Both the position numbers and the translations under genes were made by a program. From an uncultured delta proteobacterium (lineage in GTDB: Bacteria > Desulfobacterota > Binatia > UBA9968), in assembly GCA_963840855.1 (NCBI GenBank), contig CAWJBB010000068.1, forward strand, positions 55,678 through 119,677: a DNA stretch of 64,000 bases, given 5' to 3'. Position 1 is the first letter of the stretch. Every line of letters begins with the position of its first letter. The notes under the pieces are model-generated. The model saw only the letters and a program-made list of their open reading frames with translations. It was not told the origin of the DNA and did not search any database. This document shows positions 11,585 through 12,039 of this stretch, piece by piece.

Positions 11585-11666
11585 AGAAAATAATTACAAA
11601 AAAATTTCTAAAATGATATTTTTTTCTTGACATACTATTAATTGTGTCGTTATAATCGCGCCACCT
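11585..11666 (+). promoter_or_regulatory. Consensus sigma70 promoter with UP-like A/T tracts and GC-rich discriminator
   Basis: TTGACA 11627-11632, 18-bp spacer, TATAAT 11651-11656, then CGCGCCACC; A/T tracts upstream. Confidence 0.85.
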
Positions 11667-11768
11667 ACAAAATATGGGAGGGTTTTTAACAAACATTTCT
11701 TCGCCTGAGTCTCGCATCGCTCCCCCGACATGTATTGCCCACCCATGGAATCCTAAAAGGAGGTGTCT

Positions 11769-11816
11769 ATGGCAGCTAAAAAGGCCAAAAAGAAAGCCAA
11801 AAAGAAAAAGAAGTAA
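11769..11816 (+). CDS. 15-aa Lys/Ala-rich microprotein MAAKKAKKKAKKKKK
   Basis: Shine-Dalgarno AAGGAGGTG immediately before ATG 11769, TAA at 11814-11816; lies between a consensus promoter and a terminator. Confidence 0.75.
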   Translation: MAAKKAKKKAKKKKK

Positions 11817-11903
11817 GTATTGAGATGTGAGGTGGTGGTGGTGATTTGAACCCTCCTTAAATCTCAGGCGGTAAGATAGCTGTTCTGGCTATCGAGCAAA
11901 ACA

Positions 11904-11939
11904 AGCCCCCCGGTAAACAACTCGGGGGGCTATGTTTTT
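11904..11939 (+). terminator. Rho-independent terminator
   Basis: agccccccg-loop-cggggggct followed by atgttttt. Confidence 0.85.
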
Positions 11940-12039
11940 GTAGCCAAATGAAACCTATCACACTATAACGATTCCGCTTCACTCGTCGCGAAGAAAAACA
12001 CTTTCACCACGAAGGCACGCCTTCCGGTCGGGTATATTC

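Follow-up and report, generated by a model that had tools for sequence, protein, structure and literature searches.

A conserved micro-gene of uncultured Binatia with a probable 15-residue lysine-rich product and a predicted mRNA clamp

Can an apparently empty gap between genes hold a gene of its own, if the reading frame in question spans a mere 48 nucleotides (nt)? The question is raised by a stretch of 64,000 nt from an uncultured delta proteobacterium (Desulfobacterota; Binatia; UBA9968; assembly GCA_963840855.1, contig CAWJBB010000068.1, positions 55,678 to 119,677, forward strand), here called the window. In one of its intergenic gaps, the initial annotation had read A/T tracts, a promoter, a Shine-Dalgarno (SD) sequence, an open reading frame (ORF) of 15 amino acids (aa) and a terminator. 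Every one of these elements is found by reading and by a consensus scan. They span 11627-11939 (+ strand) from the promoter onwards, with a presumed transcript of ~277 nt (about 11663-11939). The unit is single copy in the source genome according to BLAST. The encoded peptide would have 10 Lys and 4 Ala among its 15 residues, and no Pro. The unit is very probably a real, transcribed and translated micro-gene.

Conservation is the first part of the answer. BLAST of 11585-11945 matched 28 of 41 related genomes near full length (E <= 2e-10, 67-93% identity); f2, a second family, is represented among them by each of its five genomes. None of the 28 relatives' loci inspected lacks the promoter, the SD, the ORF or the terminator. 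The ORF, 12-19 aa long, is intact in 20/20 loci and then in 8/8 further ones. R1, a covariance model of the 3' part of the unit built from 51 sequences, has matches in 76 of the 89 genomes of family f1 (two of them only weak) and in 5/5 of f2; f1 and f2 are two families of one order. A search for the SD and the lysine ORF in related genomes had been proposed at the outset. Both turn out to be conserved, with start, SD and stop intact in more than 80 genomes. Two rows in each alignment and four of the tallied genomes (G009, G015, G063, G084) are unpublished; no statement rests on them alone.

An exact scan over one genome per prokaryotic species used a pattern of three blocks: block B, the SD plus ATGGC, and block B' (Table 1). 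It found 73 genome stretches, 67 with a poly-lysine ORF and 6 unrelated. The matched records are mostly titled 'Candidatus Binatia bacterium' or 'Deltaproteobacteria bacterium' and are metagenome-assembled genomes.

Not every relative has the unit. Two f1 genomes without it are also without a CcdA match, and some of the f1 misses are probably assembly gaps, because the neighbouring ccdA is missing too. In f3, the third family of the same order, R1 matched 0 of 28 genomes. The pattern search in f3/g23 matched one of five genomes, inside an unrelated gene, and the ExbB-CcdA syntenic gap (~200 nt) of two f3/g23 genomes (L150, L151) holds no unit. These two f3 genomes have a G+C content of 68%, versus 56% in the source genome.

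The second part of the answer lies in the codons. These were counted in 65 distinct ORF nucleotide sequences from all loci. Lysine is written 435 times as AAG and 260 times as AAA (695 in total), and the Asn codons AAC and AAT occur 0 times. The initial annotation had taken the mix of AAA and AAG as an argument for coding; the mix is confirmed, and it generalises across the 65 ORFs without an Asn codon. Ala is written in all four ways (GCC 109, GCA 76, GCT 55, GCG 30), always in the frame of the ATG. The remaining codons are few and stand for Thr, Arg, Ser, Pro, Gly and Val. The stop codon is TAA in 48 ORFs and TAG in 17. Differences in ORF length among relatives are whole codons only, and the 28 distinct peptides of the family share a Lys/Ala-rich, low-complexity, cationic composition. 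The longest run of A within any ORF is 10, with 5-8 being typical, and the G's that break these runs belong to the pattern.

The surroundings of the ORF agree. The AAGGAGG of the SD is invariant in 26/26 sequences, the spacing from GGAGG to ATG is 5 nt in 120 of 125 occurrences, and conservation falls quickly directly after the stop codon. Translation is favoured by GCN codons that lie in frame and are four-fold degenerate, by a start and a stop that do not move, and by the drop in conservation past the stop. Going by its sequence, the ORF would be translated. An overlapping 49-aa ORF (11674-11823) was rejected. It is not conserved: it stops before the poly-lysine region in 33 of the 49 relatives that have its start codon, and its frame relation varies.

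The third part is presence in RNA libraries. Fifteen studies contribute 20 public runs with the stretch, and 9 of these runs are recorded as RNA. Contigs of four RNA runs from four studies, with soil and sediment origins, were aligned to the locus. They cover 11716-11913 with 0-2 differences, at contig depths of 2-110; a 201-nt contig comes from one RNA library of 12.5 million letters. Loose contig ends carry sister versions of the SD-ORF part and of the block after the ORF. The contig ends (11716/11722 and 11908/11913) are not transcript ends. In the flanks 11200-11691 and 11938-12400, runs X6, X8 and X10 have no contig and X5 has pieces of depth 2-3; these were not used as evidence of a stand-alone unit or of expression level. 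The claim of a hidden gene that stands alone, between a promoter and a terminator of its own, is supported. The micro-ORF shows coding-type conservation and is covered by RNA-library contigs.

Table 1. Elements of the unit and their positions in the window
Feature	Position	Strand	Remarks
A/T-rich UP-like tract	11585-11626	+	Ends TAAAAT-N4-T7-C, abutting the -35
Sigma-70 promoter TTGACA-N18-TATAAT	11627-11656	+	-35 at 11627-11632, -10 at 11651-11656; 12/12 matches
Discriminator and probable start region (CGCGCC-ACCTAC)	11657-11668	+	CGCGCCACC at 11657-11665; start site presumed
Block A, 5' SD-like GGGAGGGTTT (GGGAGGGTT in the minimum free energy fold)	11676-11685	+	Partner is A'; minimum free energy fold
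Block B, CGCCTGAG	11702-11709	+	5' half of the clamp between the 5' and 3' untranslated regions; RNAalifold pairing with 11863-11870
Shine-Dalgarno AAGGAGGTG	11757-11765	+	3 nt 5' of ATG 11769
ORF MAAKKAKKKAKKKKK, 15 aa plus TAA	11769-11816	+	ATG 11769, TAA 11814-11816; intact in all relatives inspected
G/U-rich block GTGAGGTGGTGGTGGTGA	11827-11844	+	(GGY)n pattern conserved in f1/f2
Block A', GAACCCTCCT (AACCCTCCT in the minimum free energy fold)	11848-11857	+	Anti-SD-like partner of A in the 3' untranslated region
Block B', CTCAGGCG	11863-11870	+	3' half of the clamp; RNAalifold
Hairpin H (GATAGC-TGTTCTG-GCTATC)	11874-11894	+	
Intrinsic terminator	11904-11939	+	Stem-loop 11904-11931, 10 pairs (8 G-C); T-run 11935-11939

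A good promoter is in itself not remarkable. A 2.5-kb scan finds 2 promoter-like sites versus 1.9 +/- 1.4 in shuffles, so that one consensus promoter is not beyond chance. The site in question is, however, the sole perfect TTGACA-N16-18-TATAAT on either strand of the 7,096,277-bp assembly, and it is lifted above chance by its conservation in relatives. The 18-nt spacer is retained in 24 of 26 relatives, the -35 and -10 are almost invariant in an alignment of 20 loci, and the upstream tract TAAAAT..AT-TTTTTTC is nearly invariant in all 18 full-length relatives aligned. The signals of promoter strength, the UP-like tract and the hexamers, are conserved.

The initial annotation went further and saw an rRNA-type promoter, with the GC-rich discriminator that marks growth-rate control. 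This part does not stand. The 6 nt after the -10 have at least 4 G/C in 28 of 57 distinct relatives and at most 3 in 29, with 6/6 in only 6; the GC-rich stretch is limited to the window and its nearest kin. After these first 6 nt of the discriminator, ACCTAC is the commonest hexamer (20 of 57 distinct relatives). The promoter does resemble E. coli rrn P1 in its consensus -35, its A/T-rich upstream tract and its TATAAT followed by CGCGCCACC. It differs in that the GC-rich discriminator is not conserved and the spacer is 18 nt, and it is unlike the source genome's own rrn promoter, which reads TTGACA-N17-TATAAA and then GTACTTT. Given the variable discriminator and the different rrn promoter, the likeness to rrn P1 is local to the kin of the window, and stringent (ppGpp) control of the promoter is not supported.

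The rrn promoter itself lies at ~51755-51790 of contig C59 of the source assembly (G000), in minus-strand reading, directly after a gene ending in an S4-like domain and ~165 nt 5' of the 16S start.

A shared promoter class or regulon signature was also considered. It was rejected, since each of three near-complete genomes has the extended promoter pattern just once, with one further 1-mismatch match elsewhere.

The messenger RNA (mRNA) appears to be structured around the ORF. On A1, an alignment of 26 transcripts, RNAalifold predicts a long-range helix B-B', hairpin H and the terminator. The minimum free energy fold of the single sequence, at -87 kcal/mol versus -73.4 +/- 4.8 in shuffles (z = -2.8), closes the molecule by A-A' rather than by B-B'. 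On A1, 94.5% of the cells in four helices are paired, versus 91.0 +/- 0.4 when shuffled, and 0 of 500 shuffles reach this value. Double-sided changes are found in 12 pairs versus 7.3 +/- 1.4 in shuffles, and sliding the helix partners by one column makes pairing fall to 54-61%. Double changes affect 7 of 8 pairs in hairpin H and 4 of 7 in the terminator. Several of the transcribed non-coding blocks are almost invariant in the alignment of 20 loci.

The B-B' helix bridges the 5' and 3' untranslated regions (UTRs), and will be called the clamp. It is invariant within f1/f2, and its 8-bp core is retained in 60/60 distinct contexts, although other orders show several G-U pairs in it. L137/L145 have a compensated pair, A-U in place of G-C, where CACCTGAG goes with CTCAGGTG. 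The helix is 8 bp long in this lineage and 10-14 bp in other orders.

A-A' is paired in 90.3% of the cells on A1, with one compensatory pair, GGGAGGGC/GCCCTCCC, in L023 and L062. Over 57 sequences the A-A' duplex has a mean of -17.7 kcal/mol, versus -11.2 for A' with the true SD. Because A' pairs better with A than with the SD, the SD would stay free rather than blocked. Sequestration of the SD by A' was rejected for this weaker pairing, which also erodes in several relatives.

The linker from A' to B' is only 3-6 nt, which would allow A-A' and B-B' to stack coaxially along an uninterrupted 3' strand. In either fold ~47 nt upstream of the SD and 31 nt past the stop are outside helices.

In f1/f2 the G/U-rich block lies 3' of the ORF. 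Other orders (L134, L139, L142) have a similar block ahead of block B, within the 5' UTR. With at least 4 GG runs, it could be a two-tier G-quadruplex or an SD-like standby site.

Do longer versions of this gene exist? In a class-level sample, R1 gave intermediate matches (25-41 bits) in f7 (7/17), f83 (12/17), f81 (3/18), f84 (2/8) and f5 (1/3). All 12 such matches fetched from other orders are homologous units. Their order is a promoter of the type AAAATGCAATTTTTCTC-TTGACA-N17-TATGAT, a G-rich 5' UTR, CTCGCCTGAG, an SD, a Lys-rich ORF, CTCAGGCGAG, a hairpin and a terminator. The AAAATGCAATTTTTCTC that precedes TTGACA there is similar to the A/T tract of the window. The ORFs encode 25-27 aa (for example MAAKKKASKAKKKAPAKKGAAKKKK), 30, 36 and 40 aa. 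In f81 they reach 112 and ~126 aa, with tandem KKKKA(A/V)(A/P) repeats. Only B-B' and the promoter style are common to all; blocks A and A' and the H loop are not conserved in other orders.

In a class-wide pattern search, 12 of 30 fetched loci were true, being more f7/f83 members with ORFs of 21-30 aa. The other 18 were unrelated (f6, f79, f4, f84, f85, f87). Outside the class, there were 15 weak model matches (23-31 bits), with no K-rich ORF in any of the 11 loci fetched. Given the homologous units of other orders, the micro-ORF is best read as an orthologue of longer Lys-rich proteins, shrunk to 12-19 residues in f1/f2.

One false pattern match deserves mention for itself. In three f6/g30 genomes (L152-L154), a 212-aa protein rich in Cys (MADIQDWTLQGDWFDVCSCDIACPCEF...) follows a conserved leader, CGCCTGAG...GGAGG.

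The longer proteins match no described family. Searches with two long relatives at E up to 1 gave no Pfam family, PF07382 (HC2) included, and no NCBIfam family; the 15-mer is too short for both. The Atlas model of one long form is predicted to be disordered (pLDDT, the predicted local distance difference test, 0.38). Its Atlas feature neighbours are 'hypothetical' clusters, one with HC2 PF07382 in 15% of its members, which is a lead only. A word-indexed search with the 112-aa form gave 4 weak matches, two of them with SWIB PF02201, and was uninformative. An exact look-up of four relatives (25-40 aa) in a collection of 15 billion proteins found 0/4, and no relative of 22-70 aa was scored for the 40-aa form. 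The peptide strings were not found in searchable literature, nor does such a gene appear in the titles or abstract starts of the 'Binatota' papers sampled.

In the source genome, no other Lys/Ala-rich protein was found. Its contigs C78 (near 8535) and C87 (near 136344) do contain long homopolymer A tracts that read as at least 25 Lys in all three frames. These may be assembly artefacts or real poly(A) tracts.

So what would the gene be for? The explanation that we find reasonably likely, with due reserve, is a generic nucleic-acid-binding polycation, resembling the tail of histone H1, that comes from a clamped, stable and heavily translated mRNA. A free-standing and very strongly promoted micro-gene would give the ~277-nt transcript. 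Translation from its perfect SD would yield a Lys/Ala peptide of 15 residues whose net charge is ~+10, presumably the short extreme of a family that occurs in several Binatia families. The peptide would be abundant and sequence-unspecific, and would most likely bind and neutralise nucleic acid: nucleoid DNA, and perhaps RNA too.

The mRNA, for its part, looks built for high and stable output. B-B' pairing would close the message around the ORF, and A-A' (5' SD-like GGGAGGG with 3' anti-SD-like CCCTCC) would be a second pairing in this lineage. Since the stretches before the SD and after the stop are free, ribosomes could translate without opening the clamp.

Four functions had been proposed for the peptide: a protamine- or histone-tail-like nucleoid factor, a tiny ribosomal protein, a polyphosphate binder and a lysine-sensing translated element. 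The first gains support, because homologous units of sister orders encode Lys/Ala/Pro repeat proteins of 21-40 aa and 112-126 aa. The other three come out weakened, for reasons given with each below. The source genome also has three HU/IHF genes. A further idea, that the peptide is a polyamine surrogate, is not supported, as there are three loci with a spermidine-synthase domain in the source genome.

Several observations count against the H1-tail-like polycation and its clamped message. The unit is dispensable in some lineages, being absent from f3 and from several other families of the class. The non-coding blocks are conserved at least as well as the ORF, which is why the RNA may have a role of its own. 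A/G-only third positions with triplet periodicity would also fit an RNA-binding tract of the (ARN)n type, though the in-frame GCN codons oppose this. A-A' crosses B-B', so the predicted structure is either a pseudoknot-like stack or a pair of alternative folds. The RNA contigs attest presence only, and not transcript ends, strand or level; DNA may occur in RNA libraries. The peptide is known from sequence; tryptic proteomics would miss a Lys-only peptide, and as a free 15-mer it may not be stable. Lastly, the H1-like label is one of composition, as the long forms match no Pfam or NCBIfam family.

Could the RNA be the main actor? It would then be a dual-function or purely regulatory small RNA, with an ORF that mainly loads ribosomes and stabilises the RNA. 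Binding to target mRNAs, to ribosomes or to an RNA chaperone would fall to the anti-SD-like CCCTCCTT, the G/U-rich block and the hairpin H loop. This would suit non-coding blocks that are invariant or nearly so across f1/f2, a supported structure, a presence in RNA libraries, and an A-rich ORF that is a run of ARN-like triplets. Moreover, block A', the anti-SD-like motif, has CCTCCTT in common with the 16S 3' end of the source genome (GGATCACCTCCTTTCT).

Against this, the units of other orders encode proteins of 21-126 aa, and A, A' and the H loop are not conserved in them. The codons are protein-like, with 0 Asn in 695 AAN and four Ala codons always in frame. No Rfam family matched either: a scan of the window region and of seven relatives' loci gave nothing at the gathering threshold, the best sub-threshold match having E = 2. 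A search of the window for tRNA and tmRNA found none. On balance, an RNA acting by itself is unlikely.

The polycation might have another target. Polyphosphate (polyP) or a different non-nucleic polyanion, such as acidic lipids, could take the place of the nucleoid. Charge alone would allow such binding, and there is an analogy: AlgP, with its Lys/Pro/Ala repeat tail, is described in the passages drawn on here as localising to polyP granules and spacing them (PMC9239181). It is an analogy only, and no polyphosphate kinase PPK1 (PF02503) was found in the source assembly, which is 94% complete, versus 7 of 14 control genomes that have it; PPK2 was not searched. This weakens the polyphosphate binder for the source genome at least, and a non-nucleic target appears quite improbable.

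Tiny ribosome-associated proteins such as bTHX, bS22 and eL41 suggest a further role. A very strong promoter and SD and extreme basicity would be expected of such a protein, and the SD-like and anti-SD-like motifs in the mRNA could mimic an rRNA site for feedback. A length that ranges from 12 to 126 aa, together with low complexity, does not however fit a fixed rRNA pocket. The unit was also not found in f3 or in many other families of the class, and it is not located beside ribosomal protein genes. A ribosomal protein is thus very unlikely.

The next possibility involves the genes downstream. On the same strand these are for a TlpA-like thioredoxin, CcdA, FolE and a leucyl aminopeptidase. Of 98 oriented loci, 77 have one or more of the genes for TlpA, CcdA and FolE downstream; some genomes enter this count twice, and in many of the other loci the sequence is too short. 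The next gene varies, being an alpha/beta hydrolase in many relatives and TlpA in the window. Upstream genes vary among relatives, and other orders have different neighbours, for example ribonucleotide reductase. The downstream arrangement is vertical synteny, not the signature of an operon.

The hydrolase-like gene, ~275 aa long (MEKWIGDLL...HGLW...), sits between the unit and tlpA in, for example, L036, L042, L054 and L061 (+208 to +314 nt from the SD). The genus of the window does not have it.

The conserved same-strand synteny would suit a cis-acting leader, a translated sensor of lysine or charge that controls read-through into tlpA-ccdA-folE. The stop codon, however, is 87 nt upstream of a canonical, covarying terminator, and the next gene differs between relatives. 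No downstream gene concerns lysine, and the neighbours in other orders are different ones. A leader-peptide attenuator arrangement was not encountered at the locus, in an analysis that made no exhaustive search for antiterminators. The lysine-sensing element must therefore be held highly improbable.

As to lysine itself, PF02784 (the N domain of Orn/DAP/Arg decarboxylases, LysA type) has no match in the 94% complete source assembly, and is present in 13 of 14 control genomes. Elsewhere in the window, at 8407-9866, there are ORFs with very long Pro/Thr runs (PPPPPPPPPPPPPTPPTPPPP...) after a FecR-like N-terminal part. The Pro/Thr repeat is open in several overlapping frames.

Finally, a chance ORF in an A-rich spacer would be easy to believe of 48 nt and of one consensus promoter in 7 Mb, which is about the chance expectation, yet it is already contradicted by the more than 80 genomes that keep start, SD and stop and by the RNA-library contigs over the locus, and is barely credible.

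A bolder and more doubtful proposal can be made, which is offered tentatively. A closed-loop mRNA would let Binatia produce, in very large amounts, an oligolysine that is encoded by a gene and has 12-19 residues: a 'bacterial protamine'. This would be the shortest conserved free-standing coding gene in which the product itself, and not translation as such, is functional. It would have arisen from an H1-tail-like protein that shrank until little but its charge was left. There may even be feedback, with the peptide stabilising the A-A'/B-B' duplex on its own message.

The gene was missed altogether by gene callers and protein databases, despite having the only perfect promoter in a 7-Mb genome. 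Should the peptide act in the way suggested, charge neutralisation of nucleoid or RNA can be left to an oligocation that ribosomes make and that has a dozen residues. The series from 126 down to 12 aa would then be a natural experiment on the minimal length of an H1-like tail, and the mRNA a deeply conserved bacterial example of 5'/3'-UTR closure, from an uncultured lineage. In metatranscriptomes, the unit can also serve as a practical marker RNA for Binatia.

Related systems are known. Dual-function small RNAs can carry very short ORFs, like for example Spot 42 with its 15-aa SpfP. The window likewise has a small, terminator-ended and seemingly highly expressed RNA with an ORF for a peptide of about 15 aa. 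Unlike SpfP, this ORF has long protein-coding homologues.

In the icaR mRNA of S. aureus, an anti-SD motif of the 3' UTR reportedly pairs with the 5' UTR. Here too, the 3' UTR has a C-rich, anti-SD-like motif that is able to pair with a G-rich 5' motif of the same mRNA. The difference is that in the window's lineage the better partner is the 5' SD-like decoy A, and not the true SD.

On the protein side, the likeness is to H1-like Lys/Ala/Pro repeat proteins, such as the C-terminal domains of AlgP and PhaF and the chlamydial Hc2 (PF07382). These have Lys and Ala (and Pro) in common with the family, and are disordered and highly cationic. The window's 15-aa product, by contrast, has no folded domain and no Pro. 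A long tandem repeat domain exists only in the f81 relatives (112-126 aa), not in the window or in f1/f2. The likeness is one of composition, and homology is not established. KPAA-repeat peptides of AlgP bind DNA, according to the passages drawn on here (PMC9239181).

For the RNA, the hbs mRNA of B. subtilis, which encodes the abundant nucleoid protein HU, appears to be the nearest precedent by analogy, with icaR a looser parallel. In the parts of the source that are relied on here, this mRNA has a strong SD and a 14-bp interaction between its UTRs that modulates cleavage by RNase Y (PMC5737220). Both messages combine a very strong SD with long-range 5'/3'-UTR pairing around the ORF. They have no sequence relation, and the window's lineage has a second, crossing helix, A-A'. 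What is new here is a probable free-standing H1-like polycation of oligolysine size, on an mRNA with a predicted class-wide 5'/3'-UTR clamp.

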